64,000 nt of DNA, taken from positions 3,901-67,900 of the forward strand of contig JBJEWA010000010.1 in the NCBI GenBank assembly GCA_051884805.1. Reading direction: 5' to 3'. Source of the DNA: Kiritimatiellia bacterium. Its GTDB lineage: Bacteria > Verrucomicrobiota > Kiritimatiellia > RFP12 > UBA1067. Below, piece by piece: positions 34,711 to 60,049 of this stretch (positions are counted from its first letter, which is position 1; each line of letters starts with the position of its first letter). Made by a program: the position numbers and the translations under genes. Below the pieces are notes generated by a model that was not told the DNA's origin, did not search any database, and was given only the letters and a program-made list of their open reading frames with translations.

Positions 34711-36984
34711 ATGCAGACATCGATTGTCGGATATCCGCGCATTGGTGCGCAGCGTGAGCTGAAGTTTGCGGTCGAGCGGTATTTCAAGGGAGAATTGTCC
34801 GGCGAGGCGTTGGAGGAGACGGCTCGCGGATTGCGCGCCCGCCATTGGCGGCAGGTCGCGGCGGCGGGAATCGATTTCATCCCCTCGAACGACTTCTCGC
34901 TCTACGATACCTTTTTGGATGCGGCGATGCTCTTCAATTGCGTCCCGGCGCGCTACCGTGCGTTGGGGCTGGACGAACGGGATACCTGTTTCGCGATGGC
35001 GCGCGGCTATCAGGGACCGGCGGGCGACGTGCACGCGCTGGCCATGAAGAAGTGGTTCAACACCAACTACCATTACCTGGTGCCGGAACTGGAGGATGAC
35101 ACGGATGTCCGTCTGGCGGGCAGCAAACCCTTTGTCCACTACGACGAGGCCAAGGCGTTGGGCTTTGAAACGCGCCCCGTCCTGCCCGGTCCCTACACCT
35201 TCCTGAAGCTGGCGCGTTATCCGGGCCGCAGGCAGGCCGCCGATTTCGCCGGACCGCTGGTGGCGGCCTACGAGCAGTTGTTCGAAAAGCTGGCCGCGCG
35301 GAATGTGGCTTGGATTCAGCTGGACGAGCCTTATCTGGTGCACGACCAAAGCCCGGAAGACGTGGCGTTCTTTACCGCGCTCTACACCCGGTTGCTCGGC
35401 AACAAGCACGGATTGCGCGTGTGGCTGCAAACCTACTTTGGCGATGTGCGCGATTCCTACGCGGCGCTTGCGGCCTTGCCCTTCGATGCCATCGGGCTGG
35501 ACTTTGCGGAGGGACGCAAGACGCTCGAACTGGTGACGACGCAAGGCTTTCCCAAGGACAAGTTGTTGGTGGCGGGGCTTGTCAACGGCAAGAACATCTG
35601 GCGGGCGGACTACGGCAAGATTCTGGATACGCTTGAGGCGATTGCGCCGCAGGCCGGCGAAATCGTGCTGGGGACGTCCTGTTCCCTGCTCCATGTTCCC
35701 TACACGCTCGCCAACGAACCGAAACTCGCCCCGGCGGAGAAAGCCTACTTCGCCTTTGCCGAGGAGAAGCTGTCCGAATTGGCCGAATTGAAGCGCCTCT
35801 GCGCCGCAGCGTGTCCGCGCGAAACGTCCGCCTACCGGGCCAACCGCGCGCTTTGGGAGGCCGCCCGCCCGAACAGCGCCGATGCCGCCGTCGATGCGCG
35901 GCTGGCCCAGTTGACTCCGGACGACTTCACGCGCCGTCCGGCCTTTCCCGAACGCGCCGCCGTCCAGTCCGCCGAACTGAAGCTGCCGAAGTTTCCCACC
36001 ACGACCATCGGCTCCTTCCCGCAGACGGCGGACGTGCGCGCCAATCGCGCGGCATTCCGGAAAGGCGCGAAGAGCGCTACGGAATACGCTGCCTTCAACA
36101 AGGCCGAAACCAAGCGCTGCATCGAATTGCAGGAGCGGATCGGACTGGACGTTCTCGTGCACGGCGAATTCGAGCGCAACGACATGGTGGAGTTCTTCGG
36201 CGAGCACCTCGACGGCTTCCGCTTTACGGCCAACGGCTGGGTGCAGAGCTACGGCACCCGCTGCGTCAAGCCGCCGGTCATCTGGGGCGACGTCTCCCGG
36301 CGCGCGCCCATGACGGTGGACATGGCCGTCTACGCCCAGAGCCTCGCGCAGAAACCCGTCAAGGGCATGCTCACCGGGCCGGTGACCATTCTCAACTGGT
36401 CCTTCCCCCGCGAAGACATTCCCATCCGCCGGAGTGCGGAGCAAATCGCGCTCGCCATTCGTGACGAGGTGCTCGATTTGGAGGCCCACGGCATTCGCAT
36501 CATTCAGATTGACGAAGCCGCCCTGCGCGAAAAACTGCCGCTGCGCAAGAGCGATTGGCATTGCGCCTATCTCGACTGGGCGATTCCCGCTTTCCGCCTT
36601 GTCCACAGCGGCGTCAAGCCCGGCACCCAGATCCATACCCACATGTGCTATTCGGAGTTCAACGACATCATCGCGGAGATCGACGCCATGGACGCCGATG
36701 TCATCTCCTTCGAAGCTTCGCGGGCCGATCTGGCCATTCTCGATGCGCTCGCCGCCGCCAACTTCCGCACGGCCGTTGGCCCTGGCGTCTACGACATCCA
36801 CTCTCCGCGCATTCCCTCCACGGAGGAAATTCTCGGGCAGTTGCGCAAGATCCTGCGCAAGGTCGATCCCGCCAAGCTTTGGGTCAACCCCGATTGCGGC
36901 CTGAAAACCCGCGGTTGGGCGGAAACCGTGCCCTCGCTGGAGAACATGGTGCAGGCGGCCGAGGCCCTGCGTCGCGAAGCCTAG
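34711..36984 (+). CDS. metE: Cobalamin-independent methionine synthase
   Basis: 757 aa. [26 protein letters not shown]-terminus and C-terminal zinc-site region [12 protein letters not shown] ... PDCGLKTR. Confidence 0.95.
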
Positions 36985-37037
36985 GCCACCCGCCCGGAGA
37001 GCCGCAAACGCTACGTGACGCGGGGGCGGGGTGCGCC

Positions 37038-37067
37038 TTGACATACATACCAGGGAGTATGTATAAT
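37038..37067 (+). promoter_or_regulatory. Consensus promoter TTGACA-N18-TATAAT
   Basis: Perfect -35 at 37038-37043 and perfect -10 at 37062-67. 9 nt to ATG 37077, implying a leaderless or near-leaderless mRNA. Confidence 0.65.
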
Positions 37068-37076
37068 ATCGAATCT

Positions 37077-38501
37077 ATGCATCATCCCGGCAAGTTTGCG
37101 GTTCTGGCGTTGGCGCTGCTGGCGGTCTCTGGCTGCCTGACGGTCTTCAACGCGCAGGAGGCGCAGCGGTCCGTTCGCGACAAGGCCTCCGGGGCGGGCG
37201 GGCCGACGGCGGGCGAACGGCTGGACCTGTCCGGGTGTTCGCTCCGCGAGCTGGTGGACTTTGCGCTGACGAACCGTCCGTCGATGGCGTCTGCGGCGCT
37301 GGCCGTCGCCGACGCGCACCTGGCGTTGCGGGAGATCGCCGCCGACGCTCCGCTCGTGAGCGCGACGCCCTGGAACGCGCCGAACCTGTCCGCTTCCGGC
37401 GGCTACAGCGCCTCGTCCGTCGCCGGTCACGCGCTGCGGGCGCGGACGGAGGGCAATGCGAGCGCGGGCCTGTCGCTCAGCGTCCTGGTGTACGACTTCG
37501 GCCGCAACCGGGCGCAGGCGAGCGCCCAGGCCGAGCGGGTGCTGGCCGCCGAACATTCGTTCGTCAGCGCCGGCTACGAGGTCTTCGAGGAGGTGTCGGA
37601 CGCATACTTCGCCCTGCTGACGGCGGACGCGCTGCTGGAGGTGGCGCTGACGAACGAGACGGAATGCGCGTTGCGGCTGCAGCAGGCGCAGGACCGCTTT
37701 GACACGGGCGAGGCGAAGCGGCTGGACGTCACGTCGGCCAAGCTTGAGCTGTCGCAGGCGCGTGAGGAGACGATCGTCGCCTCGAACAACGTGCTGACGG
37801 CCGGCGCCACGATGATGAAGGCGCTGGGCGTCGACGTGTCGCAGGGAACGCGCGAGGAGGTCTTCCCGCCGTTCGGCAACGCGCTTGCCGTCGTCCTGCG
37901 GGGGTTCTCCTCCACCGGCTACGGCGTGCGCGAGGCCTTCGACCTGGCGCGGACGAACGCGCCGGCGATGGCGATTTCCCGGGCGCGGCTGCGGGCGGCG
38001 AGCCATCAGGTCGATCTGGCGATTGCGGAGCTGATGCCGTCGGTCTCGGTGCAGGCGGGGTTGAGCTGGACTGATCCGCTCTGGCTCTGGAACTGGTCCG
38101 CGAGCGCCGTGCAGTCGGTGTTCGAGGGCTTCCGGAAGACGACGGCCGTCGACCGGGCGGTCGTGCAGATGTACAGTGCCGCGGCGGACGTGGACGAGGC
38201 CGAACAGCAGCTTTCGCTGCAGCTGGAGACGGCGATTGCCGTGCGGGACGATTCGGCCAAGGCCCTGGAGACGGCGCGGGCGTCGGTCGCGAACGCGCTG
38301 GAGAACCTGAATACCGTGAAGGCGCAGTATGGCGAGGGCGACTCCAGCCGCGTCGACTACACGATTGCGCTTGCGAAGTACGCGCAGGCGCTGGGCGACC
38401 GCGTGTCGGCCTTCTACGCCGGGCAACGGGCGGAGACGAAGCTGTTTGCGCTGACCGGGCGGCTTCCGGAGTACCGGGAAGAGGAGATAAGGGAGAGGTA
38501 A
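37077..38501 (+). CDS. TolC-family outer membrane efflux lipoprotein
   Basis: Lipobox LLAVSGC. Two OEP-like helical repeats. First gene of an efflux operon. Confidence 0.8.
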   Translation: MHHPGKFAVLALALLAVSGCLTVFNAQEAQRSVRDKASGAGGPTAGERLDLSGCSLRELVDFALTNRPSMASAALAVADAHLALREIAADAPLVSATPWNAPNLSASGGYSASSVAGHALRARTEGNASAGLSLSVLVYDFGRNRAQASAQAERVLAAEHSFVSAGYEVFEEVSDAYFALLTADALLEVALTNETECALRLQQAQDRFDTGEAKRLDVTSAKLELSQAREETIVASNNVLTAGATMMKALGVDVSQGTREEVFPPFGNALAVVLRGFSSTGYGVREAFDLARTNAPAMAISRARLRAASHQVDLAIAELMPSVSVQAGLSWTDPLWLWNWSASAVQSVFEGFRKTTAVDRAVVQMYSAAADVDEAEQQLSLQLETAIAVRDDSAKALETARASVANALENLNTVKAQYGEGDSSRVDYTIALAKYAQALGDRVSAFYAGQRAETKLFALTGRLPEYREEEIRER

Positions 38502-38505
38502 GCTG

Positions 38506-39792
38506 ATGTCGGAATGGTCGAATTGCCGGATGGCGGCGGTGGCGCTGGCCGCCGCGCTGGGGCTTGCCGGATGCTCGGACGGGCAGATGATCGGCAAGGA
38601 CAGGGGGCCCAGGTACCGGTTTGCGACGGTGATGCGCACCGACGTGATCCGGACCGTCGAGGCGACGGGAACCGTCACGCCCCGGAACACGACGGAGGGC
38701 ATTCCCGTCGGCGCGCAGGTGAACGGGCGGATCGTCAAGCTGTTCGTCGACTACAATTCGACCGTCACCAACGGGCAGGTGGTCGCGCTGATCGACCCGC
38801 TCGTGTACGAGGCGACGTACAAGAGCGCCGTCGCGCAGCTGCACGTCAACGAGGCCAACGTCAGCGTCCGGATCGCCGCGGTGAAGTCGTGCGAGGCCGA
38901 ACTCGTCCTCGCGGAGAAGACCTTTGCCCGCAAGCAGGCCCTGGTGGCGAAGTCGATGGCGCCGGTCGCCGAACTGGACAGCGCCGAGGAGACGCTGGCC
39001 AAGTCCAGGGCGGCGCTGGAGAGCGCGAAGGCGTCGCTCCAGAGCGCGAAGGCGTCCGTCGAGCAGAGCGCGGCGGCCGTCAGCAAGGCGAAGGCGGACC
39101 TGGACTACTGCACGCTCCGTTCGCCGGTGGACGGCGTCGTCATCGCCCGCAAGGTGGAGGAGGGGGAGACGGTCGTCTCGTCGTACAACGCGGTTCCGGT
39201 GCTGACGATCGCCGAGGACCTGAAGGTCGTCTGGGTGGAGGCGACCGTGCCCGAGGCCGACGTCGGCAACATCAGGGTCGGCCAGGAGGTGACGTTCACC
39301 GCCGATGCGTACCGGCGGCGCTTCAAGGGCCGGGTGAAGCAGGTCCGCAAGGCCCACACGACGACGAACAACGTCGTCACCTATCCGATCATCATCGAGG
39401 CGGAGAACCCGGGCGAGATGCTGTTCCCCGGCATGACGGCGACGCTGTCGATCGAGACGGCGCGCGCCGAGAACGCGGTCGCCGTCTCCGCTGCGGCGCT
39501 CCGGTTTCGGCCGAAGGAGGAGGACCGTGAGGAGGGCGAAGTGCCGCGCGGGCGCAAGCTCTGGGTGGTCGGCGAGAACGACCGGCTCCGGCCCGTCGTC
39601 ATCACGGAGGGCGTCTCCGACACGACGAACGTCCAGATCGCGGACCATGACGAGCTCGTGGGCACGGAGGTGGTGATCGGCTACGAGACGCCCGCGACGC
39701 TCGCCCTGAAGAAGGACGACACGACCAATCCGTTCAAGCAGAAGTTTCCGCAGCGCAACAAGAACAAGGGCACCGCGCCGGAACCGAAGTAG
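38506..39792 (+). CDS. macA: Efflux periplasmic adaptor (HlyD/MacA family)
   Basis: Lipobox GLAGCS, coiled-coil hairpin region and beta-barrel segments typical of membrane fusion proteins. Confidence 0.85.
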   Translation: MSEWSNCRMAAVALAAALGLAGCSDGQMIGKDRGPRYRFATVMRTDVIRTVEATGTVTPRNTTEGIPVGAQVNGRIVKLFVDYNSTVTNGQVVALIDPLVYEATYKSAVAQLHVNEANVSVRIAAVKSCEAELVLAEKTFARKQALVAKSMAPVAELDSAEETLAKSRAALESAKASLQSAKASVEQSAAAVSKAKADLDYCTLRSPVDGVVIARKVEEGETVVSSYNAVPVLTIAEDLKVVWVEATVPEADVGNIRVGQEVTFTADAYRRRFKGRVKQVRKAHTTTNNVVTYPIIIEAENPGEMLFPGMTATLSIETARAENAVAVSAAALRFRPKEEDREEGEVPRGRKLWVVGENDRLRPVVITEGVSDTTNVQIADHDELVGTEVVIGYETPATLALKKDDTTNPFKQKFPQRNKNKGTAPEPK

Positions 39793-39830
39793 CCGAAGCG
39801 GCCGGCGCGCCGCAGCCGCAGCGAGGCAGG

Positions 39831-40573
<743 letters not shown>

Positions 40574-40577
<4 letters not shown>

Positions 40578-48694: not shown

Positions 48695-49939
48695 ATGACG
48701 ACACGCTTTACGGTTGACGGCAAGCAAGTCTCGCTGCTCGGATACGGGGCGATGCGCCTGCCGACGGTCGATGGCGGACACGCCAACAACTGGATGCTGG
48801 ACGCGTCCAAGTCGGCGATCGACCAGGAGCATCTCAACCGGCAGGTGCGGGAGCTGCTTGAACACGGGGTCAACTACTTCGACACCTCGCCGGCCTACTG
48901 CCGCGGCGAGTCCGAGGCCGCCATCGGCAGGGCCTTGCGGGCAAGCGGCTGGAAGCGCGGCGACTACCTCATCGCCACGAAGCTCTCCAACTTCTCGCCG
49001 ACCCAGTATTCGCTCGACGCCTGCAGGAAGATGTTCGAGGCGTCGCTGAAGGCGCTCGGGACGGGCTATGTGGACAACTACCTCCTGCATTCGATCGGCA
49101 ACGGCGGGTTTGCGACGTTCTCCCGGCGCTACGTCGAGAACGGCGCGGCGGACTGGTGTCTCGAACTCCGTGCGCAGAAGCGCATCCGCAACCTGGGCTT
49201 TTCCTTCCACGGCGACAAGAAGGCGTGGGACTGGTGCCTTGAGCGCCACGACAAGTACCGGTGGGACTTCGCGCAGATCCAGCTGAACTACGTCGACTGG
49301 CGCCATGCGAAGCAGGTCAACGAGCGGAACGTCGACGCGAAGGTGCTCTACGACGAGCTGACGGCGCTGAAGATTCCCGTGGTCGTGATGGAGCCGCTGC
49401 TGGGCGGGCGGCTCGCGCGCTACAACTGGGCGCTGGCGAACGCGCTGGCGCCGGTCGATCCCGAGGCGTCGCTGGCGGCCTGGGCGCTCCGTTTCTGCGG
49501 CAGCGCCGAGAACGTGATGACGGTCCTGTCCGGCATGACCTTCGACGAGCACATCCGGGAGAACATCAAGGTCTTCTCGCCGCTCAAGCCCTGCACTGCG
49601 CGCGAGCTTGAGGCGCTTGAGCAGGCGGCCGTGGCGTACCTGTCCTGCAACGCGATTCCCTGCAACTGCTGCAACTACTGCATGCCGTGTCCGTACGGGC
49701 TCGACATTCCCGCGCTGCTCACCTTCCGGAACCAGTTCCTGACGGCGAACGGGCCGCGCGACGCGAAAAAGCTGCTCCGGGCCTACGCGAAGGCGGTGCC
49801 GGAGGAACTCCGCCGCGCCGACCATTGCACGGGCTGCGGGCGCTGCGGTCCGCACTGTCCGCAGCAGATCGACATTCCCAGGGAGATCGCGCTGATCGAT
49901 GCGGTCATTGACGAGCTCAAGGCGGAGACTGCGCGATGA
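48695..49939 (+). CDS. Aldo/keto reductase with C-terminal Fe-S cluster domain
   Basis: AKR core (GVNYFDTSPAYCRGESE) plus CNCCNYCMPCP and CTGCGRCGPHCP. Confidence 0.8.
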   Translation: MTTRFTVDGKQVSLLGYGAMRLPTVDGGHANNWMLDASKSAIDQEHLNRQVRELLEHGVNYFDTSPAYCRGESEAAIGRALRASGWKRGDYLIATKLSNFSPTQYSLDACRKMFEASLKALGTGYVDNYLLHSIGNGGFATFSRRYVENGAADWCLELRAQKRIRNLGFSFHGDKKAWDWCLERHDKYRWDFAQIQLNYVDWRHAKQVNERNVDAKVLYDELTALKIPVVVMEPLLGGRLARYNWALANALAPVDPEASLAAWALRFCGSAENVMTVLSGMTFDEHIRENIKVFSPLKPCTARELEALEQAAVAYLSCNAIPCNCCNYCMPCPYGLDIPALLTFRNQFLTANGPRDAKKLLRAYAKAVPEELRRADHCTGCGRCGPHCPQQIDIPREIALIDAVIDELKAETAR

Positions 49940-51531
49940 AGATCTTGAAATTCCTTGTCCGCCTGTTTTTCGTCGGCGCCGTTGCGGCGGCCTTCTTCGG
50001 CGTGCCGTTCTGCTGGCTGGCGCTCAAGCCGCAGCGTCTCCTGTGGGCGTTGCCGCTGACGTTCCTGCTGGGGCGGTTCTTCTGCGAGGCGATGTGTCCG
50101 CTGGGCGTCCTGCAGGGGTTCGTGAACTGGGTGCTGCATCCGAAGAGGCACGTGCGGCGCGTCTGCACCCGCCTGCCCGAGACGCGGGCGCAGCGCATCG
50201 TCCGCTGGAGCGTCTTCGCGCTGGTCGCGGGCGGTCTTGCCGCCGGCGTCGGCGCGGCGTCGCTGGTGCTGCCGATGTCCGTCTTCGGCAAGGCCGCATC
50301 GCTCTGGTGGCCCGGCGTCGCGCTGTTTGCGCTGGTCATGGCGCTGGCGGCGTTTGGCCAGGGGCGGATCTGGTGCAACTGGATCTGCCCGTACGGGACG
50401 CTCTTCAATCTGGTGTCGCGGTTCGCGCTGCTGAAGCACCAGGTCGGCGCCGGTTGCGGCAACTGTCGGCAGTGCTTCGAGCGCGGCAAGAGAAAAGCGG
50501 CGGCTCCCGCCCCTGCGGCCCCGGACGCCGTCACGCGACGGGAGACGCTGAAGGGCGTGGCCGTCCTGGCCGTGGCCGAGAAGCTGACGGACGGCGGCTT
50601 CGCGGAAGTGTCGCTGCCCGGCGTACCGGCGGGGAGGAAGCCGGTCCTGCCGCCGGGCGCGGGCGACGCCGCGTCCTTCGCGCGCCGGTGCGTCGGCTGC
50701 CAGCTGTGCGTGGCGAGCTGTCCCGGTGGCTGCCTGAGTCCGTCGACGGGGCTGAAGGACTTCGGCCAGCCGAAGCTGGACTTCCGGCGGGGGTACTGCC
50801 TGCTCGACTGCGTGAAGTGCAGCGAGGTCTGTCCCGAAGGGGCGATCCGCTTCCTGCAGCGCGAACAGCGGCCGCATGTGCACCTGGGCCATGCCATCTG
50901 GAAAAAGGACCTGTGCGTGCGGACGACGACGGGCGATGCCTGCACGGCGTGCGTGCGGAAGTGTCCGGTCCGGGCGATTCACCTGGTGCAGGGCTTCCCG
51001 GTCGTGGACCGCGGGACGTGCGTCGGCTGCGGCGCCTGCGAACACGTCTGCCCGGCGCGGCCGATGCCGGCGATTTTCGTGAAAGGATTCGAGATGCAGC
51101 GAGTGGTGAACCCGATTTCGGAAAGCGATCTCCTGGCGGAGATGCGTTCGCGCCTGGCGGCGGGGGCCGCCGTCGTCGTCGCGCGGGACGGCGTCATCGT
51201 CGCGGAGGAGTCCGGGCGCGGCCTCGATCCGCTGCTGCGGCTGTTCGAGGCGGGCAAGCTCCGCCGGGCGACGGTCATGGACAAGGTGGTCGGCCGCGCG
51301 GCGGCGGCGATCTGCGCCCGGGGCGGCGCACGCATGGTCTGCACGGGCCTGGCCGGGAAGGGCGCGGCGGAGCTCCTCGGGCGGTGCGGCATCCGCCTGG
51401 AGGCGGAGCAGACCGTCGAGACGATTTTGAATCAGGAGCGTACCGGGAGCTGTCCGATGGAACGGGCGGTGGCCGGGCTCGAGGATCCGGAGCAGATGGT
51501 CGAGGCGATCAGAAAGGCAAGGCGGAAATGA
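49936..51531 (+). CDS. Membrane polyferredoxin (NapH-like N-terminus) fused to DUF1893/TM1506-like C-terminal domain
   Basis: ATGA overlap with the AKR gene. TM region with CEAMCPLG and WCNWICPYG. Four CxxCxxCxxxCP motifs. The C-terminal ~130 aa resembles the TM1506 family by eye. Confidence 0.65.
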   Translation: MKILKFLVRLFFVGAVAAAFFGVPFCWLALKPQRLLWALPLTFLLGRFFCEAMCPLGVLQGFVNWVLHPKRHVRRVCTRLPETRAQRIVRWSVFALVAGGLAAGVGAASLVLPMSVFGKAASLWWPGVALFALVMALAAFGQGRIWCNWICPYGTLFNLVSRFALLKHQVGAGCGNCRQCFERGKRKAAAPAPAAPDAVTRRETLKGVAVLAVAEKLTDGGFAEVSLPGVPAGRKPVLPPGAGDAASFARRCVGCQLCVASCPGGCLSPSTGLKDFGQPKLDFRRGYCLLDCVKCSEVCPEGAIRFLQREQRPHVHLGHAIWKKDLCVRTTTGDACTACVRKCPVRAIHLVQGFPVVDRGTCVGCGACEHVCPARPMPAIFVKGFEMQRVVNPISESDLLAEMRSRLAAGAAVVVARDGVIVAEESGRGLDPLLRLFEAGKLRRATVMDKVVGRAAAAICARGGARMVCTGLAGKGAAELLGRCGIRLEAEQTVETILNQERTGSCPMERAVAGLEDPEQMVEAIRKARRK

Positions 51532-52004
51532 ACGCGATAACATTCGGACAGGCGTGGAACTACGGCGGCCACCTCATGTGGGTGCTGTCGTTGCTCTCGG
51601 TGATGGCGCTGGCCGTCATGCTCTATCTCTGGTATGCGCATCGGCCCGGCATCTGCGTGCCCGAGGGCGTCTCGCGCGTCCGGGCGGCGAAGGATCCCGC
51701 CGCAGAGGGCGGGCGCATCGCCGATGCGATGATGGCGTCCGTCGACTGGCTGGCGGACATCGCCGCGATTGCGCCACTCGTCGGCCTGCTCGGAACGGTC
51801 CTCGGCATGTTCCAGGCGTTCGGCGGCATCGCCTCCGACGTGGCGGCCGGCGCGAAGCCGGTGGTGCTGGCGCAGGGCGTCTCGCAGGCGATCGTCACGA
51901 CGATCTTCGGCCTCGCGGTTGCGATTCCGTCGCTGGTCGCCTATGCGTTCTTCCGCCGCCGTGCGCAGAAGCGCATCGCCGAAATCGAGGAGCAGGCCGC
52001 ATGA
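51528..52004 (+). CDS. exbB: MotA/TolQ/ExbB proton channel family protein
   Basis: ATGA overlap upstream. Three TM helices. C-terminal APLVGLLGTVLGMFQAF ... AIVTTIFGLAVAIPSLVAY is typical of ExbB/TolQ. Confidence 0.8.
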   Translation: MNAITFGQAWNYGGHLMWVLSLLSVMALAVMLYLWYAHRPGICVPEGVSRVRAAKDPAAEGGRIADAMMASVDWLADIAAIAPLVGLLGTVLGMFQAFGGIASDVAAGAKPVVLAQGVSQAIVTTIFGLAVAIPSLVAYAFFRRRAQKRIAEIEEQAA

Positions 52005-52423
52005 AGTTCGTCCGGCGAAACCGTTCGCGGGCGCCGCAGCTGGCGCTGACGTCGATGCTGGACGTCATCTTCCTGCTGTTGTGCTTCTTCGTGACGGTAA
52101 GCGTCTTCTCCCAGTGGGAGAACGAGATCTCGATCAAGCTGCCGTCCGCGCAGACGGCCGACGAGCCGGACCGGCTGCCGGGCGAAATCGTCCTCAACGT
52201 CGTTCCGGACGGCTCGGTCGTGGTGAACGGCAGGAAGCTGTCGCTTGACGAGCTGAAGGTCCGGCTGGCGAAGGTCGCGCGGTTCTATCCCGGGCATCCC
52301 GTCATCATCCGCGCCGACGGTTCGCTGGCCTACGAGCGGCTCGTGAAGGTCATCGACACCTGCCGTGCCGCCGACGTCTGGAACTTCTCGCTGGCCACCA
52401 GCGGAGAGACGGAGCCAAAATGA
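52001..52423 (+). CDS. exbD: ExbD/TolR family protein
   Basis: ATGA overlap. Single TM with the conserved Asp (LTSMLDVIFLLL) and a periplasmic ExbD-like domain. Confidence 0.8.
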   Translation: MKFVRRNRSRAPQLALTSMLDVIFLLLCFFVTVSVFSQWENEISIKLPSAQTADEPDRLPGEIVLNVVPDGSVVVNGRKLSLDELKVRLAKVARFYPGHPVIIRADGSLAYERLVKVIDTCRAADVWNFSLATSGETEPK

Positions 52424-54321
52424 TCCTGCCGCTGCTTGTCTGCGCTGTGACGGTCCTGCCGTCCGACCGCCTGGCGATGGCCGACCGGCTCTTCAACCAG
52501 GGGAAGTACGCCGATGCGGCGACGGAGTACCGGGCGCTGGTCGGGCAGGAGGGCGTGGCGGCGGACGAACTGGCGTTCCGCCTGGCCGAATGCGACCGGG
52601 CGACGGGCAGGAACGAGGCCGCGCGCCGGGGCTATGCGGAGGTCTTCGGCCGTCATCCCGACTCGCGTCATGCCGCGCGCGCGCGCTTCCTCTACGCGAT
52701 GGGGGCGACGGGGCTGGAGCGGCGCAAGCTTCTGGCGGAGCTGGACAGCGACCGCGTCGACCTGGAGACGCGCACGGCGGCGCTGTACCACCTCGGCGTC
52801 GAGACTTCCGATGCGGACGCCCTGTCCCGGTGCGTGAAGCTCGCGCCCAAGGGACGCTACGCGGCCTATGCGAATCTGAAGTACGCGATGCTGCTGAACG
52901 CGTCGCCGGACGCGGCGGTGCGCCGGAAGGGCGTCGAGGTGCTGCTGGGCATCGCCTTCGGCGGCGGTCCGCTGGCGGACGAGGCCCTGTACCTGGCGGC
53001 CATCCAGAGCTACCGGGACAAGAAGTACGGCGAGGCCGGCAGCCTTTTCCGCCGCTATCGCAAGACGTTTCCGCAGGGCGAGCACACCGACGAGACGCGG
53101 TCGATGTCGGCCTGGTGCGATTTCATGGAAGGGCGCTATGCCGACGCGGCGGCCGCCTGCGGCGAGGGCGATACGGACGACTTGGCGTACATCCGGGCGG
53201 CCTGCGCCTATTCGACCGGCGACAACGAACTGGCGCTCGAACTGTTCCGGAAATACCTGGAGGCCTATCCGCAGGGCCGCTACCGCGCCGACGCGGAGCT
53301 GCCCATGGCCCGCATCGAGTTCGATGCGGCGCAGAAGGCGAACGACGCCTCGCGGACGATCGAGAGCGCCCGGCGCGGGTTTGCCCTGTCGAAGCTCGCC
53401 TCCGACCAGCTGCGGCTGGCCTGGGCCTACGAGAAGGCGGGCAAGCCGGCGGACGCGGCGGCCGAATACGCGGCGCTGGCCGCGAACTTCTCCGGTACGG
53501 CGGAGGCGGCGGAGGCGCTCTACCGCAAGGCGCTGATCGAGGCGCGCGCGGAAAACTGGTCGGCGGCGGAACTCTCCCTGTCGGAGGCCCTGTCGTCCGG
53601 GCGGCTTGGCGTCCGGACGGCGCAGGCCTGCTACTGGCGTGGCGTCGCGGCGATGCGGCTCGGCCACGAGGCGGAGGGCGCGGAGTCGCTGGAGAAGGCG
53701 GTCGCCGCCGGCCTCGGCCTGGACGAGTCGCGCGAGGCGCGGCTGATGATCGCCGACTGGGACTACCGCAACGGACGCCTGGACCGGGCGCGGGCAGCCT
53801 ATCTCAAGCTGGTGCGGGAAGGCGCGTGCGACCGAATGAGCGCCTCGCGCATCCTGGCCGTCGGCAAGTTCCTGGGCGGGGAGGCGGCCGAGACCTGCGC
53901 GAAGGCGCTGACGGCGAGCGAGGCGCCCGAATGGCGGCAGGCCGGCTGGGCGCTGCTCGGCGCCTGCGAAGAGCGGCGGGAGGCGTATTCGGCCGCCGTC
54001 GAGTCGTACCGGAAGTGTCTGGCGGAGCAGGCGCAGACGGAATCCTGCGCCGAGGCGTCGCTGCATCTGGGCAAGCTGGAATTCCGGGCCGGCGAATTCG
54101 CGCGGGCGGAAGCGACGCTGAAGCAGGCGGTTTCGCTCAACTCCGCCAGTGCCCGGGCGCGCGCCGAAGCCTACGTGACGCTGGCGAAGTCCGCCGGCGC
54201 GCGGGGCGACTGGCCGTCGGCGGTCGCGTATGCGACGGTCGTGACTTCGCTGTTCGACGATGCGGAGCTGGTCGCCGAGGCGAAACAGATCATCGAGGCG
54301 CATCCGGAGGCGAGGAAATGA
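52420..54321 (+). CDS. Tetratricopeptide repeat protein
   Basis: ATGA overlap. Signal-like N-terminus, then many TPR-like helical pairs (ADRLFNQGKYADAATEYRAL ...). Confidence 0.75.
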   Translation: MILPLLVCAVTVLPSDRLAMADRLFNQGKYADAATEYRALVGQEGVAADELAFRLAECDRATGRNEAARRGYAEVFGRHPDSRHAARARFLYAMGATGLERRKLLAELDSDRVDLETRTAALYHLGVETSDADALSRCVKLAPKGRYAAYANLKYAMLLNASPDAAVRRKGVEVLLGIAFGGGPLADEALYLAAIQSYRDKKYGEAGSLFRRYRKTFPQGEHTDETRSMSAWCDFMEGRYADAAAACGEGDTDDLAYIRAACAYSTGDNELALELFRKYLEAYPQGRYRADAELPMARIEFDAAQKANDASRTIESARRGFALSKLASDQLRLAWAYEKAGKPADAAAEYAALAANFSGTAEAAEALYRKALIEARAENWSAAELSLSEALSSGRLGVRTAQACYWRGVAAMRLGHEAEGAESLEKAVAAGLGLDESREARLMIADWDYRNGRLDRARAAYLKLVREGACDRMSASRILAVGKFLGGEAAETCAKALTASEAPEWRQAGWALLGACEERREAYSAAVESYRKCLAEQAQTESCAEASLHLGKLEFRAGEFARAEATLKQAVSLNSASARARAEAYVTLAKSAGARGDWPSAVAYATVVTSLFDDAELVAEAKQIIEAHPEARK

Positions 54322-55916
54322 CGGACGAGCGGCGGGAAGAGGTCGTCCTGATCGCGCTGGTCGTCTCGGCCGCGGTGCACGCCGCCCTGATGCTGTTTGC
54401 CCGTCCGCAGGTGATGACGCGCCCGGTGCCGGTCGCCCGGAAGGAGCGGAGCGTGCCGATGCGCGTCGTGCAGAACGCGTCGCAGCCTGATCCGGTGCGC
54501 CTGGAGCAGATTCTTGACCTGGAGGCGGTCAAGGATGCGCCGCCGGTCGCGGGCGACGCATCCGTGCCGCGCGCCGAGGCGCCGGGCGCGACGAAGGCGA
54601 CCGCCCGCGTTCCGGAGCCGGAGACGACCGAGCTGGCGGCGCCGGACCTGACGCCCGCCGTCTTCGAGGCGCGGCTGTCGGACAGGACCGTCGCCGCGCC
54701 GGTGCCGATTGTCCGCATGGAGACGCCGGAGCTGCCCGGCGCGGACCCGTCCGCGCCCGATTTCGCCGTCGCGCTGCCGCGGACGGACGCGCCGCCCGCG
54801 TCCCTGCCGGTGGCCATGCCGTCCGTCCGGGCGCCGGCGCCGGACCTGCCGCCGGTCAAGCTGACGCCGCGCGCCGAGGCGGAGGACGGCAAGCCGGCCT
54901 TCACGCCGGCGCAGGAAATCTACGACCGCGTAGACGAGCAGGTCGTCGCCGAAGAGAAGTCGGCGGTCCGCGAACTCGTCCAGGCCGAGAACGCGGCGGA
55001 CCTCGGCAAGTTCGTGAACATGACGATGACGCAGGCGGTGGCCGGGGAATGGCGCTACTTCCGGGTGCTGCTGACGCCCCGCGCGAACCTGAAGACGGTG
55101 CCGAAGGACGTCGTCCTGCTCATCGACGGGTCCGGCTCGATCGGCAACGACCGGCTCGGCAGCTGCCGGAAGGCGGCCCGGCGGATCCTGCGGACGTGCA
55201 CCAACACGGGCGACCGGTTCAACCTGGTCGTCTTCCGCAACGCATTCTCCTATGCCTTCCGCACCTGGCGGGAGTGCGACGCCCCGAGCTTCGAGGCGGG
55301 CGACAAGTGGCTGGCGCGGCAGACGGCCCATGGCCGCACGGACGTCTTCTCGACGATCAGCTCCGTCCTGACGCTGCCGCGCGACCCGGCGCGTCCGCTG
55401 ATCGCCCTGGTGGTGACCGACGGCATCGCCAATGCCGGCGTCAGCGACACCTCGGAGATCCTCTCGCGGTTTACGGCGCTCAACGACGGGCTGGTCTCCG
55501 TCTACATGTATGGCGTGAAGTCGGCGGCGAACCGTGAGCTGATCGACGTGCTGACGCACGGGAACCGGGGCGAGAGCTTCGTCTTCGAAGGCTGGCGCTG
55601 GAACGCCGGCGATGGGCTGGAGGGACTGTCGGAGCGCTTCCGCGATCCGGTGCTGACGGACCTCCGGGTGATCTTTTCGGCGGACGCGCGGGCGGAGGCC
55701 TATCCCCGGCTGCTGCGGAATCTCTATCGCGGCGGAACGCTCTCGTTCGTCGGCCGCGTGCCGGCGTCGGCGAAGGACGTGGCGTTTTCGCTGCGGGGGC
55801 TCAACGGCTCCGACGCCTACGACGGCTTCTTCCGCCTGCCGTTCGCCGCCGCGCCGGACGACGCTTCGACCGTGACGGAATGGCAGGCGGAAGCGGCGCT
55901 CGACCGCCGTTTCTGA
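54318..55916 (+). CDS. TolA/TonB-like membrane anchor + proline-rich spacer + VWA (MIDAS) domain protein
   Basis: ATGA overlap. TM helix VVLIALVVSAAVHAALMLF with Ser-x3-His. About 200 aa of Pro/Ala-rich sequence. VWA motifs VVLLIDGSGSIG, GRTDV and LVVTDG. No TonB C-terminal motif seen. Confidence 0.7.
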   Translation: MTDERREEVVLIALVVSAAVHAALMLFARPQVMTRPVPVARKERSVPMRVVQNASQPDPVRLEQILDLEAVKDAPPVAGDASVPRAEAPGATKATARVPEPETTELAAPDLTPAVFEARLSDRTVAAPVPIVRMETPELPGADPSAPDFAVALPRTDAPPASLPVAMPSVRAPAPDLPPVKLTPRAEAEDGKPAFTPAQEIYDRVDEQVVAEEKSAVRELVQAENAADLGKFVNMTMTQAVAGEWRYFRVLLTPRANLKTVPKDVVLLIDGSGSIGNDRLGSCRKAARRILRTCTNTGDRFNLVVFRNAFSYAFRTWRECDAPSFEAGDKWLARQTAHGRTDVFSTISSVLTLPRDPARPLIALVVTDGIANAGVSDTSEILSRFTALNDGLVSVYMYGVKSAANRELIDVLTHGNRGESFVFEGWRWNAGDGLEGLSERFRDPVLTDLRVIFSADARAEAYPRLLRNLYRGGTLSFVGRVPASAKDVAFSLRGLNGSDAYDGFFRLPFAAAPDDASTVTEWQAEAALDRRF

Positions 55917-55996: not shown

Positions 55997-57097
55997 ATGC
56001 GCCTGCTGACGAGATATGTCCTGAGAGAGTTCCTGATTCCGCTGTCATACTGTCTGACGGGCTTCGTCTCCATCTACGTCCTCTTCGACCTCTTCGGCTC
56101 GTTCCCGCGCATGGTGGCGGCGAAGATGACGTTCAGCGACGCCGCCCTCTACTTCTGCGGCTATTTCGCGCCGTACTTCCACTACATCGTGCCGGCGGCC
56201 CTCTTGCTGGCGACGCTGTACACGATGTGGAGCTTCTGCCGCCATTCGGAAATCGTCGCGATGCGGGCGAGCGGCGTGAGCTTTCTCGCGATCGTCAAGC
56301 CGCTGTTCGCCGTGTCGCTGCTGATGGGCGGGATCGTGTTCTACGTCGACGAGGTGTTCGTGCCGGCGCGGGCGCAGTGGGCGGCCCAGCTGAAGACGGT
56401 GAAGTTCGACCGGCAGGAGATGATGCGGGCGGACAACGTCGTCCTGCGCAACGCCGCGGCCGACCGCACGTGGAACGTGAACTCCCTGCTGGACGCGGAG
56501 GGCCGGCAGCTGTCCGGCGTCCGCATCACCGTGGACCGGCCGGGCGGCGGTGTGCGGCTCATGACCGTGACTGCCGACCGCGCCGACTATCTCGACGGCG
56601 AGTGGTGGCTGTCCGGCGCCAGGTTCCAGCACTACAACGCGCGCGGCGAGGAGATCTCGACGCCGACGCCGGAACTGGACGCCCTGCCGCTGCGGTGCTT
56701 CCCCGAGTTCCGCGAGCGGCCGGAGGACTTCATGGCGCAGAACCGTCCGTGGAAGTTCAATTCGGTCCGGCAGCGCTTCCGCTACCTGAAGAGCCATCCC
56801 GAGCTTTCCGCCGAAGCGCACCGCGACGGCATCTACGACACGTGGGCGCAGATCATGGCGCCGTTCGCGTGCGTCATCATCACGCTGTTTGCCATTCCCG
56901 CCGGCATTGCCTCGGGCCGTCAGAGCGTCTTCCGGGGCATCCTCGGCGCGCTGGCGATGTACTTCTCCTTCTACGGGCTGACGATCATCATGATGGTCCT
57001 GGCGAAGAACGGCTGGTGTCCGCCGGTGCTGGCGGCGATGTTGCCGGCCGGCGTGTTTTCCGTTCTGGGCCTGCGGGCCTTCTTCCGGCAGCGATGA
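55997..57097 (+). CDS. LptF/LptG (YjgP/YjgQ) family permease
   Basis: N-terminus MRLLTRYVLREFLIPL, six TM helices with a large periplasmic loop. Confidence 0.8.
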   Translation: MRLLTRYVLREFLIPLSYCLTGFVSIYVLFDLFGSFPRMVAAKMTFSDAALYFCGYFAPYFHYIVPAALLLATLYTMWSFCRHSEIVAMRASGVSFLAIVKPLFAVSLLMGGIVFYVDEVFVPARAQWAAQLKTVKFDRQEMMRADNVVLRNAAADRTWNVNSLLDAEGRQLSGVRITVDRPGGGVRLMTVTADRADYLDGEWWLSGARFQHYNARGEEISTPTPELDALPLRCFPEFRERPEDFMAQNRPWKFNSVRQRFRYLKSHPELSAEAHRDGIYDTWAQIMAPFACVIITLFAIPAGIASGRQSVFRGILGALAMYFSFYGLTIIMMVLAKNGWCPPVLAAMLPAGVFSVLGLRAFFRQR

Positions 57098-57726
57098 CGG
57101 GTGTCGCCCTTTGCCTGCTGGCCGCGCTGACGGCAACCGCGCCCGGGGCGGAGATCCGCAACGTCCGCATTTCGTCGCCGAAGATCCTGCTCTCGCGCGC
57201 GAAGTCCGATTCGCCCGTGCTGGTCACCGGGCAGTTCCGGCTGGAGATGTCCTTTGCCGGGAAAACGGCGCACAAGCCGGTGGTGCGGCTCTGCTGCCTG
57301 AGCGAAGTCGGCGGAACCCTGATGATGAACTGCAAGTTCCTGGACCGTCCGGACACGGTGGAGGGGCTGTCGCTGTCGGAGGTCGCGCAGGGGCTGAAGA
57401 CGGCGGGCGTCAAGTTGGCGCCGCCGCTCCGCGAGATTCAGGCGGCCGATCCGGCGGTCTTCACCCCGTGCCTGCGCCAGGTCGCGCGCGAGACCTACGC
57501 CTCGGCCGTCTACGGCTCGGCCGACGTCCGGAAGGGCTTTTTCCGCCTGGGCCGGGCGGACAAGATGCCGCGGCTGCTGCTCTATCGGCTGGAGGTCTGG
57601 CAAAACGGCGTTCAGGTCGCCAAGTACGAGTCGCCGCATACGGGGCTCGGCGCCTATGGGATTCCCGCCGACTGGCATGTCTGGAAGCGTTATCCCGATC
57701 GGTTCCGCTATTTTGCCGCGCCGTGA
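57094..57726 (+). CDS. Hypothetical secreted protein
   Basis: ATGA overlap with the permease gene. Signal peptide MTGVALCLLAALTATAPGAE. No recognisable domain. Confidence 0.55.
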   Translation: MTGVALCLLAALTATAPGAEIRNVRISSPKILLSRAKSDSPVLVTGQFRLEMSFAGKTAHKPVVRLCCLSEVGGTLMMNCKFLDRPDTVEGLSLSEVAQGLKTAGVKLAPPLREIQAADPAVFTPCLRQVARETYASAVYGSADVRKGFFRLGRADKMPRLLLYRLEVWQNGVQVAKYESPHTGLGAYGIPADWHVWKRYPDRFRYFAAP

Positions 57727-57749: not shown

Positions 57750-57908
57750 ATGCGACGGCCGATGATGCGGCGGGGGCAGGCGATGACGGAATACGCGGTC
57801 GTGCTGGCCGCGATGCTGGTCGTCGTCGCCGCCGTCTGTGCGCTTGCCTACGTCGCGAGGGCGTATGCGGTGCGGACGGAGAACCTGGTGACGTCGGACT
57901 GTCCATGA
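57750..57908 (+). CDS. Flp/Fap-type prepilin-like protein (52 aa)
   Basis: Not a separate entry in the ORF track. MRRPMMRRGQAMTEYAVVLAAMLVVVAAV has a basic leader, then G/QAMTEY (Glu at +5, Tyr at +6) and a hydrophobic helix, as in Flp pilins. Confidence 0.65.
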   Translation: MRRPMMRRGQAMTEYAVVLAAMLVVVAAVCALAYVARAYAVRTENLVTSDCP

Positions 57909-57931
57909 GCGAACCGGAAAGGAGAAATGCC

Positions 57932-58144
57932 ATGACGAAGAAAATGAAAAAGGGCCAGACCATGGTCGAGTACATCATCATCGTCGCGTTGATTGCGATT
58001 TCGCTGATCGGGATCTTCACCTTCTTCGGCAAGACCGTCCACAAGAAGGTCAAGGGCGCGGCCGAGGAGCTGACGACGGAGCAGTCCAGCGACACCTACG
58101 ACGAGAACAAGATCAAGAATCTCGGCGAGGGCGGGAACAACTGA
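57932..58144 (+). CDS. Flp/Fap-type prepilin-like protein (70 aa)
   Basis: AAAGGAG lies 7 nt upstream of ATG 57932 (alternative coupled ATG at 57905). MTKKMKKGQTMVEYIIIVALIAISLIGIF. Hydrophilic Lys/Glu-rich tail. Confidence 0.7.
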   Translation: MTKKMKKGQTMVEYIIIVALIAISLIGIFTFFGKTVHKKVKGAAEELTTEQSSDTYDENKIKNLGEGGNN

Positions 58145-58145
58145 C

Positions 58146-58613
58146 GTGTTCCGTCGCGGCCAGGCGATGCTCGAGACCGTCCTGGCGGTCTTGGTCGTCA
58201 CGGCGCTGTTTCTCGGCCTGTTCGGTCTTTCCCGGCTGCTGACGGGCAAGATCATGCTTGAACACGCGGCGATGCGCGTGGCGCGGGCGCGGGCGGTCGG
58301 GCTCAACCGGTTCCAGTGCCTCAAGGCCGCTCGGGTGGCGGTCATTCCGTCCGCCGGCGAACGGCTCCACCCCGGCAAGGACGACGCGCGCACGGACGTG
58401 AGCGAAGCGGCGCTGGCGCGTATGTACATGCGCACGCCCGACTCCAGCTACGCCGACGGGCTGCTGCGCTACGACGGCTGGAGCAGCCTGTCGGTCGGCA
58501 ATGCGCACGGCGACGGCCTGACGCAGACGCAGATGCGCGTGGCCGGGTTCGAGGTGCGGGGCGAAGCGGTCGTCGACGACTTTCCGGTCTATCTGACCGA
58601 CGGAGGCCTGTGA
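58146..58613 (+). CDS. TadE-like pseudopilin
   Basis: GTG start. MFRRGQAMLETVLAVLVVTALFLGLF is the TadE-type N-terminus. Confidence 0.65.
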   Translation: MFRRGQAMLETVLAVLVVTALFLGLFGLSRLLTGKIMLEHAAMRVARARAVGLNRFQCLKAARVAVIPSAGERLHPGKDDARTDVSEAALARMYMRTPDSSYADGLLRYDGWSSLSVGNAHGDGLTQTQMRVAGFEVRGEAVVDDFPVYLTDGGL

Positions 58614-60049
58614 AGCCGCGCAGCGGACAGGTGGCGCTCTATCTGGTGATGGTTCTCTTCGCCATCGCCGTGCTGATGCTGGTCAACGTCAACGCCTTCC
58701 TGGCCGTGCGCGCCAAGAACCGGATGATGAATGCCGTCGATCAGGCGGCGATTGCCGCCGCCAAGTGCCAGGGTGCGCTGCTCAACCGGATCGGCGAGCT
58801 GAACGTGCGGCTGCTGCGGGCGGCCGTGCTCGGGCTGGCGCAGCCGGACGACGACGCTTCCGCTGCGGAGCTGGAGGCCGAACTGCGGCGCCTGGCTTTC
58901 CTCGGGCCGGTCCGGGCGCTTGCCCGCGCCAACGCCGCGGCGGCCGACTGGGGATACGCAAGCGGCGACGCGCCGGACGCGGCCGCCGGCTCCCGGGAGC
59001 ACATCAACGAAATCAGGTCCGATTTCGAACTCTATCCGGAAGACCGGGACAACTTCTGGAACGAGGACCTGTGGCGGACGTATGCGACGGAACTGGCGTC
59101 CGCCCTCGACGGCAATCCCGCCGTCCTGCCGGGCTATATGGAGATGGTCAACCCCGGCGCTTCGGGGCTCTTCGCCAACCATGCCTTCTACGACGTCATT
59201 GCGGCCAAGGCCTGGTGCTGGTTCACCGTCGGCAACAACCGGCAGTACCTGGAGCAGGACCCGGCACAGCTCGAACCGTCCGAACTCCAGCCGGCGGCGG
59301 TGCCCGAGAACAGCGAGGTCTTTTCGCTGCACGTCACCTACAAGGGCTGGCTGGACACCGCCTGGGCGGACGAGTACGTGCCGGGCGAGGGCTTCAGCGC
59401 CATGTGGACGAATTTCGTCTGCCAGGTGACCGGGCTTTCGGAAGGGGATTTTGCGCCCGACTCGACGGCGGCCGATCCGTCGCGGTCGTGGGCGTTCTAC
59501 GACGGGAACTGGCGGACCTGGTCGACGACGTTCAATCCCGACAGCTTTCCGATTGCCGGGACGGTTCGTCCGGAATACGACGTCGCCGGGTGCGTCGCCT
59601 CCTGCATGATGATCGGCCGCATTCCGCAAATGCAGTGGAAGGACGGCAACGTCAGCGACCGGACGATGCTGGTGACGGCGGAGGCCAAGCCCCTCGGCAC
59701 GGTCGAGGATCACCTGTACGGCGGCGGCGCGGCGCCCGTGACGGCCTATCACGGCTTCGTCGCCCCGTCGCGTCCCGGCGAGAGGATCTTCACCGAAGCC
59801 CAGCTCGTGCTGATGGGATCGGTGCCCCGTTCGCCGGGCGTGAGCATGGAACCGGCCTGGTACGAGCATATTAAGCACCATTCGCCGCAGGATCCCATGC
59901 CGTCGGGCTGCGGGTACTGCGGCCTGTGGCGGCAGTGGGCGTCGCTGCGGGATTCCGCCCGCGAATGGCTGCGGCAGAACGAGGGCTCGTGCCGGGCCAA
60001 GGGCGGAACGGGCACGGAGCAGAAGGGAGGCTACGAGTATGCGCACTGA
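58610..60049 (+). CDS. TadG-like large pseudopilin (479 aa)
   Basis: GTG 58610 overlaps the upstream stop, with GGAGG 5 nt upstream. VKPRSGQVALYLVMVLFAIAVLMLV N-terminus, then a large soluble domain. No DxSxS VWA motif seen. Confidence 0.6.
   Translation: MKPRSGQVALYLVMVLFAIAVLMLVNVNAFLAVRAKNRMMNAVDQAAIAAAKCQGALLNRIGELNVRLLRAAVLGLAQPDDDASAAELEAELRRLAFLGPVRALARANAAAADWGYASGDAPDAAAGSREHINEIRSDFELYPEDRDNFWNEDLWRTYATELASALDGNPAVLPGYMEMVNPGASGLFANHAFYDVIAAKAWCWFTVGNNRQYLEQDPAQLEPSELQPAAVPENSEVFSLHVTYKGWLDTAWADEYVPGEGFSAMWTNFVCQVTGLSEGDFAPDSTAADPSRSWAFYDGNWRTWSTTFNPDSFPIAGTVRPEYDVAGCVASCMMIGRIPQMQWKDGNVSDRTMLVTAEAKPLGTVEDHLYGGGAAPVTAYHGFVAPSRPGERIFTEAQLVLMGSVPRSPGVSMEPAWYEHIKHHSPQDPMPSGCGYCGLWRQWASLRDSAREWLRQNEGSCRAKGGTGTEQKGGYEYAH

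Follow-up and report, generated by a model that had tools for sequence, protein, structure and literature searches.

A putative ExbB-ExbD-coupled transducer with a metal-dependent VWA head in Kiritimatiellia

Background

Ton and Tol are the two classic Gram-negative routes by which inner-membrane energy reaches the outer membrane, and a Ser-x3-His pair in a single-pass helix is the signature with which TonB and TolA bind their motors. The DNA analysed here, called the window throughout, is a stretch of 64,000 nucleotides from a Kiritimatiellia bacterium (contig JBJEWA010000010.1). It carries genes for an ExbB/TolQ-like and an ExbD/TolR-like protein, followed by genes for a TPR protein and for a protein of 532 amino acids (aa) that opens with such a helix and ends in a VWA domain. 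The locus raises the question of whether a Ton/Tol-type motor here drives a VWA head in place of a TonB or TolA C-terminal domain. Our answer, to which we give a probability of roughly 0.6, is that a Ton/Tol-type proton motor pulls, through a Ser/His-docked helix and a Pro-rich linker, on a metal-dependent VWA head that works beside an exported TPR partner.

This arrangement had been proposed in a sequence-only reading of the window, which knew of no characterised example. In the experimental sense that still holds, but the same idea was published in 2025 in Mol Biol Evol as a computational prediction of motor-coupled vWA 'force transducers' encoded beside tolQ, tolR and TPR genes in bacteria of the Planctomycetes-Verrucomicrobia-Chlamydiae (PVC) group (PMC12204202).

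Results and discussion

The operon and its products

The window has a G+C content of about 67%, and between 49.9 and 57.1 kb the genes run on the same strand with high third-position GC. Within this run, open reading frames (ORFs) are chained by ATGA start/stop overlaps at 51528, 52001, 52420 and 54318. The sequence-only reading had placed all four overlaps correctly and had counted four ORFs; the chain is one of five, as the overlap at 51528 couples exbB to a NapH-like ferredoxin/DUF1893 gene lying 5' of it. The four central genes and the parts of the 532-aa protein are listed below. Structural features are taken from an AlphaFold2 (AF2) model, with the predicted local distance difference test (pLDDT) as the confidence score.

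51528..52004, + strand: ExbB/TolQ-family proton-channel subunit, 158 aa, three predicted transmembrane segments (PF01618, E 1.7e-24)
52001..52423, + strand: ExbD/TolR-family subunit, 140 aa, Asp21 in the transmembrane helix (PF02472, E 4.7e-27)
52420..54321, + strand: TPR protein, 633 aa, signal-like hydrophobic N-terminus (several TPR Pfam models)
54318..55916, + strand: putative TonB/TolA-like transducer with VWA head, 532 aa, stop included (translation, Pfam VWA, AF2)
54333..54401, + strand: N-terminal transmembrane helix, residues 6-28, with Ser17 at 54366-54368 and His21 at 54378-54380 (AF2, pLDDT >90)
54402..54932, + strand: Pro/Ala-rich disordered linker, residues 29-205 (pLDDT 50-63)
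54456..54470, + strand: PMRVV, residues 47-51, candidate 'motor box' about 25 residues past the helix (conservation)
54933..55913, + strand: globular head, residues 206-532 (pLDDT >90)
55107-55598, + strand: VWA domain, residues 264-427 (PF00092, E 2.1e-10)
55125-55139, + strand: metal ion-dependent adhesion site (MIDAS), D270-x-S272-x-S274 (family alignments)

The Pfam matches of the first two proteins confirm their earlier assignment as ExbB/TolQ-like and ExbD/TolR-like. Both score far under the equivalog cut-offs of exbB, tolQ, exbD and tolR, and thus form a separate subfamily of the motor family. The window ExbB was aligned with residues 129-201 (TM2-TM3) of E. coli ExbB and keeps the Thr pair of the pore, E. 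coli Thr148 and Thr181 corresponding to T90 and T125. In ExbD, of which the operon holds one gene, the transmembrane segment LTSMLDVIF aligns with the Asp-bearing helix of the solved Serratia and E. coli ExbD chains.

The AF2 model of the 532-aa protein was built from 138 family members and has a mean pLDDT of 83.4. Its helix 6-28 holds S17 and H21 within VVLIALVVSAAVHAALMLF, so the Ser-x3-His pair claimed for the fourth ORF does lie inside a transmembrane helix. The spacer behind it is Pro/Ala-rich as described (18% Pro, 17% Ala) and lacks secondary structure in the model, but it measures 177 aa and not about 200; the PMRVV region shows no strand in this monomer model. The head opens with a helix and two beta strands, continues with the VWA domain and closes with about five more strands and a terminal helix. 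The post-VWA module of the sequence-only reading corresponds to confidently folded strands and the terminal helix, and its intact MIDAS is likewise found, with D270, S272, S274, T341 and D368 all present and each invariant or at least 90% conserved in the family.

When the family profile was compared with the sequences of the PDB, the best head matches were ITIH4 (E 6e-35) and ITIH1 (E 3e-33). Foldseek on the high-confidence model returned ITIH1 first (1e-20) and then archaeal ArnB, the VWA protein 4fx5 from a bacterium, headpieces of integrin beta3 and adhesins from pilus tips. Going by strand order and by how far the ITIH and integrin alignments extend, the strands on either side of the VWA domain may belong to a single sandwich that hosts the VWA domain as an insert, as is the case in integrin beta.

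Three routes were used to look for a concealed C-terminal domain of the TonB_C or TolA type, and none revealed one. In Pfam and NCBIfam the protein had no match at E <= 0.1 to the TonB_C (PF03544/PF13103), TolA, VIT or BatA models, the family-profile search of the PDB contained no TonB/TolA match, and the Foldseek matches included neither TonB (absent from the top 50) nor TolA. A match to TIGR03788, the model of marine sortase targets among VIT-VWA proteins, was limited to model positions 244-504, with a score far below the cut-off.

Conservation of the motor-binding helix and the linker

A word-indexed search scored a set of candidates, of which 868 were homologues at E <= 1e-5; the best 120 of these are all at least 60% identical to the window protein, and one is labelled Kiritimatiellae bacterium. 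In an exhaustive search of 50%-identity representatives 208 clusters were found at E <= 1e-30, and 127 of the best 150 representatives are full length with an N-terminal transmembrane segment. Loss of the Ser/His pair in orthologues was looked for in both sets. S-x3-H is kept in 119 of the best 120 homologues and in 125 of the 127 full-length representatives, which are about 25-55% identical, and one further representative keeps the His only. The count of 125/127 is the unbiased one; the invariance of S17 and H21 in our two family alignments (A1 and A2) is circular, because their sequences were picked for the motif.

A conserved His within a single-pass helix is unusual, and it is the established motor-binding signature of TonB and TolA (PMC12204202). 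The same paper describes a strand-like 'motor box' after the transmembrane helix of these two proteins. An xM[R/K][V/I/L] motif, PMRVV in the window protein, occurs in 108 of the 119 S-x3-H-bearing close homologues and can be discerned in many distant ones. It lies about 25-30 residues past the helix, and V50 is the majority residue in A1. By analogy of place, PMRVV may be the counterpart of the TonB/TolA motor box. Distant members further share the linker motifs W-x-P-R-x-E-I and L-P-R-R-x-I-P-x3-R-x3-A-P-D, which are weaker in the subfamily of the window (A1, window residues ~95-145, nt ~54600-54750). These motifs are candidates for sites at which ExbD or the TPR protein docks.

Gene order in related loci

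Gene order was compared on the basis of 12 exact-protein look-ups, and one single-protein scan of genome contigs gave two loci. The organism labels among the relatives cover Kiritimatiellae and Lentisphaerota (Ca. Spyradenecus). Members of the family are plentiful in the searched metagenome collections; the one close relative with an organism label is a metagenome-assembled genome (MAG) from yak gut. The loci, with the identity of their VWA protein to that of the window, are as follows.

L001-L003 (yak-gut Kiritimatiellae MAG), 61%: ferredoxin-ExbB-ExbD-TPR-VWA-LptFG, exact order
L009/L010, 32%: ExbB-ExbD-TPR-VWA, junctions tight or overlapping, one ExbD
L016 and L017, ~30%: ExbB-ExbD-TPR-VWA, junctions tight or overlapping, one ExbD
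L004, 49%: TPR-VWA, with a CT398-like coiled-coil gene in the 1.4 kb upstream, in place of the motor
L012, 39%: TPR-VWA, motor lacking within 9 kb, BamD-like and LptE genes 4-6 kb upstream
L005, L008 and L011, 34-44%: short contigs, each with a TPR gene immediately 5' of the VWA gene
L006/L007, 28%: VWA gene alone
L013, ~33%: VWA gene alone, following SecA; the protein clusters with that of Ca. Spyradenecus (Lentisphaerota)

Five lineages, whose VWA proteins range from about 30% to 100% identity to that of the window, thus have the order ExbB-ExbD-TPR-VWA, and the synteny with exbBD that the sequence-only reading expected of orthologues stands for these and fails in L004, L012, L006 and L013. 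The window ExbD is 44% identical to that of L009, compared with 24-28% to the ExbD proteins of Tichowtungia aerotolerans, which is treated below. A TPR homologue lies directly 5' of the VWA gene in nine loci (L001, L004, L005, L008, L009, L011, L012, L016 and L017). The TPR-VWA pair is the constant core of the system, and motor linkage is frequent and not universal. The sequence features of the system lie far beyond chance, given that hundreds of homologues preserve both the motif and the order of the genes.

The TPR proteins of the compared loci are mutually homologous (25-74% identity across most of their length) and open with signal-like hydrophobic segments. Matches of the window TPR protein in Pfam include repeat models of the YfiO/BamD type, and TIGR02795 is marginal, the score of 91.5 against a cut-off of 90.1 being reached by summing five repeat stretches. 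The parallel drawn earlier with CpoB/YbgF of the Tol-Pal cluster survives as a loose likeness; orthology to CpoB was rejected, with 17 bits against a cut-off of 383 for NF008068.

Comparison with the published vWA force transducers

The prediction in PMC12204202 starts from Tichowtungia aerotolerans, of the phylum Kiritimatiellota, and AF3 models given there put the transducer His at the TonB/TolA site, again as a computational prediction. Two Tichowtungia transducer sequences were taken from its supplement, one of them confirmed as an exact database match. The Tichowtungia transducers and the window protein are alike in having a Ser-x3-His pair in an N-terminal transmembrane helix, a linker that is disordered or rich in Pro and a C-terminus of vWA fold that replaces TonB_C or TolA domain III; for the strand-like motif of the published class, PMRVV is the candidate in the window protein. 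The loci are alike in that ExbB/TolQ-like, ExbD/TolR-like and TPR genes adjoin, and the phylum is the same.

Homology between the transducers was tried and rejected. BLASTP of the Tichowtungia transducers against the window protein gave E 0.27, and tblastn gave no match in the window or in the fetched loci. The 146 homologues of the Tichowtungia transducers, which are without a precomputed Pfam VWA match, form a set disjoint from the window family. A profile comparison with hhalign reached 79% probability over 74 columns, covering the VWA core only. The Tichowtungia transducers described in the supplement, of about 475 aa, have no DxSxS MIDAS (VFILDANK) and no Pfam VWA match, whereas the MIDAS of the window protein is intact.

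The two loci also differ in layout. In Tichowtungia the genes stand in the order TPR, one of 110 aa, one of 781 aa (vWA-like), TPR, one of 262 aa, ExbB, ExbD, ExbD, transducer 1 and transducer 2. A tandem pair of transducers thus follows two ExbD genes, whereas the window has one of each; the TPR genes of Tichowtungia lie upstream of the motor, and that of the window lies between motor and transducer. The window ExbB is 36% identical to the Tichowtungia ExbB, and the window TPR and VWA proteins had no match against the Tichowtungia locus. The 781-aa protein (P0384, L015 809-3154, CP047593.1), which lies upstream between two large TPR genes, is a third Tichowtungia vWA-transducer paralogue with 31% identity; the sections of PMC12204202 used here mention two.

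By sequence comparison, then, the window protein belongs to a separate, larger, MIDAS-intact family with a fixed ExbB-ExbD-TPR-VWA operon, for which the concept has already been published as a prediction. According to the same paper the vWA class was traced by Foldseek across several phyla, so that loci like that of the window may already be among its hits. The TolQ-only 'TPH-vWA' family of Idiomarina, as it is described there, resembles the window in tethering a vWA head to a TolQ-like motor. It differs in having no ExbD/TolR gene and no Ser/His pair and in carrying an Asp-bearing trans-pore helix, whereas the window has both an ExbD gene and S-x3-H.

Comparison with other systems

E. coli TonB-ExbB-ExbD shares with the window system the motor family, the Ser-x3-His helix, and a Pro-rich linker that would span the periplasm, with PMRVV as a candidate for the strand-like motif after the helix. 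Unlike TonB, the window protein has a VWA/MIDAS head and no TonB_C, and a TPR partner is co-encoded; with such a head, partner capture would be metal-mediated, as opposed to the beta-strand addition at the TonB box. The Tol-Pal system (TolA, TolQ-TolR, CpoB) offers a parallel in operon logic, with two motor genes, a transducer and a TPR protein with YbgF/BamD-type repeats. It differs in that the window protein has no TolA domain III and in that CpoB has no orthologue in the 633-aa TPR protein. TonB, TolA, TolB and Pal were not found in the scanned ORFs of the window.

The ITIH1/ITIH4 and integrin beta headpieces resemble the window head in having a MIDAS VWA domain with beta strands on both sides. 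These are eukaryotic secreted or receptor proteins with no coupling to a membrane motor, and the window protein has no VIT match. Anti-phage defence (e.g. Zorya-like motors) was considered and dropped, with no PADLOC match for any of the five proteins of the chain.

Proposed mechanism

From the conserved domains, motif and gene order we infer the following mechanism. ExbB, probably as a pentamer, and ExbD, probably as a dimer with Asp21 as proton acceptor, would form a rotary motor in the inner membrane. The transmembrane helix of the 532-aa protein, with its N-terminus presumably in the cytoplasm, would dock on the outside of this motor through the Ser17/His21 face, as in TonB and TolA, and beyond the membrane PMRVV may engage the periplasmic domain of ExbD. 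The linker of 177 residues would carry the head across the periplasm, where the ITIH/integrin-beta-like fold with its complete metal site could grip an acidic side chain of an envelope ligand. Through this grip the work of the motor would become a pull on the ligand, or its cyclic capture and release. The exported TPR protein would be an obligate partner, acting as an adaptor, as a chaperone of the head or as the ligand itself. A role in maintenance of the outer membrane or envelope is most likely, ahead of one in nutrient import.

A bolder form of this mechanism, which we regard as decidedly unlikely, is that ExbB-ExbD-TPR-VWA replaces TolQ-TolR-TolA-CpoB in Kiritimatiellae, Lentisphaerota and their relatives as a 'bacterial integrin' powered by the proton motive force. 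The pull of the linker through the strands flanking the VWA domain would then switch the MIDAS between low and high affinity, giving force-regulated capture of a ligand associated with the outer membrane or peptidoglycan, with the TPR protein as adaptor, in envelope maintenance or division. The LptF/G, BamD-like, LptE and MlaD neighbours described below would reflect this envelope role.

Several observations count against the motor-driven head. The motor is not adjacent in L004 (49% identity), L012, L006 or L013. One close homologue (P0120, 61% identity) has Gln in place of the transmembrane His (SIVVQ), and of the four-residue SHLS motif of the published class S and H alone are conserved, L and the second S being variable. 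The window ExbB is a minimal form of 158 aa, with Gln120 at the place of E. coli Glu176. By the positive-inside rule the topology stays ambiguous, with K+R equal in 15-residue flanks of the helix and the N-in orientation favoured by 8-residue flanks only. No ligand candidate emerged from the neighbourhoods of the fetched loci, and the VWA-transducer members are known as sequences alone. As regards the separated motors, tonB co-occurs infrequently with exbBD according to PMC12204202, so the motor-less loci weaken the case and do not refute it. Of the three findings that the sequence-only reading named as refuting, neither the hidden TonB_C or TolA domain nor the loss of Ser/His came up, and the third, orthologues apart from exbBD, did so in part; its interpretation is supported on balance.

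Alternative explanations

These motor-less loci are what one would expect if the TPR and VWA proteins formed a motor-independent scaffold or adhesion module, anchored in the inner membrane and facing the periplasm, with exbBD serving a TonB or TolA encoded elsewhere and the Ser/His pair acting, for example, in oligomerisation of the helix. TPR-VWA is indeed the most constant unit, its motor being absent from the vicinity in L004 and L012 and the VWA gene standing alone in L006 and L013. We nevertheless consider this explanation unlikely. The four-gene order recurs in five lineages over about 30-100% identity with overlapping junctions, the near-invariant polar pair is the exact TonB/TolA signature, and the ExbD proteins of distant syntenic loci are specifically window-like, as the figures for L009 (44%) and Tichowtungia (24-28%) illustrate.

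A quite different picture would follow from the opposite topology, with the N-terminus outside and the VWA head in the cytoplasm, where it would act like the VWA proteins associated with MoxR or chelatases and exert no force across the envelope. Several Arg/Lys residues follow the helix in the window subfamily, and the 15-residue flanks do not favour N-in; the 8-residue flanks do, the partner TPR proteins have signal-like N-termini, and a long linker rich in Pro, like the folds nearest to the head (ITIH, integrin, pilus adhesins), is typical of extracytoplasmic proteins. No AAA+/MoxR or DUF58 partner was seen in any locus examined, and we regard this topology as very improbable. Much the same absence bears on a divergent Bat-type complex (Bacteroides aerotolerance, BatA/BatB/BatC). 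Bat complexes, like the window, have membrane-anchored VWA proteins beside TPR proteins. The BatA N-terminal domain, a MoxR ATPase and a DUF58 gene were not found in the window or the related loci, the window protein has a single N-terminal helix only, and neither ExbBD linkage nor S-x3-H is a Bat feature. A Bat aerotolerance operon was therefore rejected (no BatA_N, MoxR or DUF58), and a distant Bat relative seems to us barely credible.

Neighbouring genes and other features of the window

Two genes flank the motor-VWA genes.

49936..51531, + strand: NapH-like membrane polyferredoxin with C-terminal DUF1893/TM1506 domain, 531 aa (TM1506 4.8e-27, Fer4 models, NCBIfam NapH/NapF-like)
55997..57097, + strand: LptF/LptG-family lipopolysaccharide-export permease, context only (PF03739, E 2.6e-52; 80 bases after the VWA gene)

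The polyferredoxin gene occurs at the identical position in L001-L003 with 71% identity and was not found in the distant loci L009, L016 and L017; it is a possible member of the motor-VWA system. The permease has an equivalent in L001 (5513-6613), and the unrelated vWA-transducer locus of Tichowtungia has an LptF/G gene (L015 14534-15616) at a distance of 3 kb. Other envelope-biogenesis genes near the family are the BamD-like gene and LptE upstream in L012 (2879-4490) and MlaD in L009 (1-734). Such recurring neighbours may point to a role at the outer membrane, or they may be there by coincidence.

L004 (CAVGIZ010000107.1) is a contig of 8.6 kb filed under an 'Anaerovoracaceae bacterium' (Firmicutes) MAG, with TPR and VWA proteins 49-50% identical to those of the window; the label is probably a binning error. 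Its upstream gene is of a CT398-like coiled-coil/Zn-ribbon type.

Elsewhere in the window, a Tad/Flp-type pseudopilin-like cluster lies at 57750-60049. Its products are a protein of 52 aa whose N-terminus is TadE-like, a TadE-like protein of 155 aa (PF07811, 5.7e-06) and one of 479 aa whose N-terminus is TadG-like (PF13400 just under the cut-off) and which has no other recognisable domain. At 36513-40577 a TolC-like OEP, a HlyD-type membrane-fusion protein and an ABC ATPase stand in a row, as in a MacAB-TolC-like tripartite exporter. Two ORFs, of 873 aa (18469-21090) and 209 aa (57097-57726), have coding-like third-position GC and no Pfam match.

Conclusion

For experiments the window family offers a better start than the Tichowtungia proteins with their degenerate MIDAS, because it is large, abundant in metagenomes and has clean, testable determinants in Ser17/His21, ExbD Asp21 and the MIDAS triad. 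If the motor-driven VWA head is true, transducers would have a third class, with an integrin-like and metal-dependent head. Such a class would widen the range of work known for 5:2 proton motors, and it could explain how the envelope is energised in PVC bacteria without a recognisable TolA or TonB.

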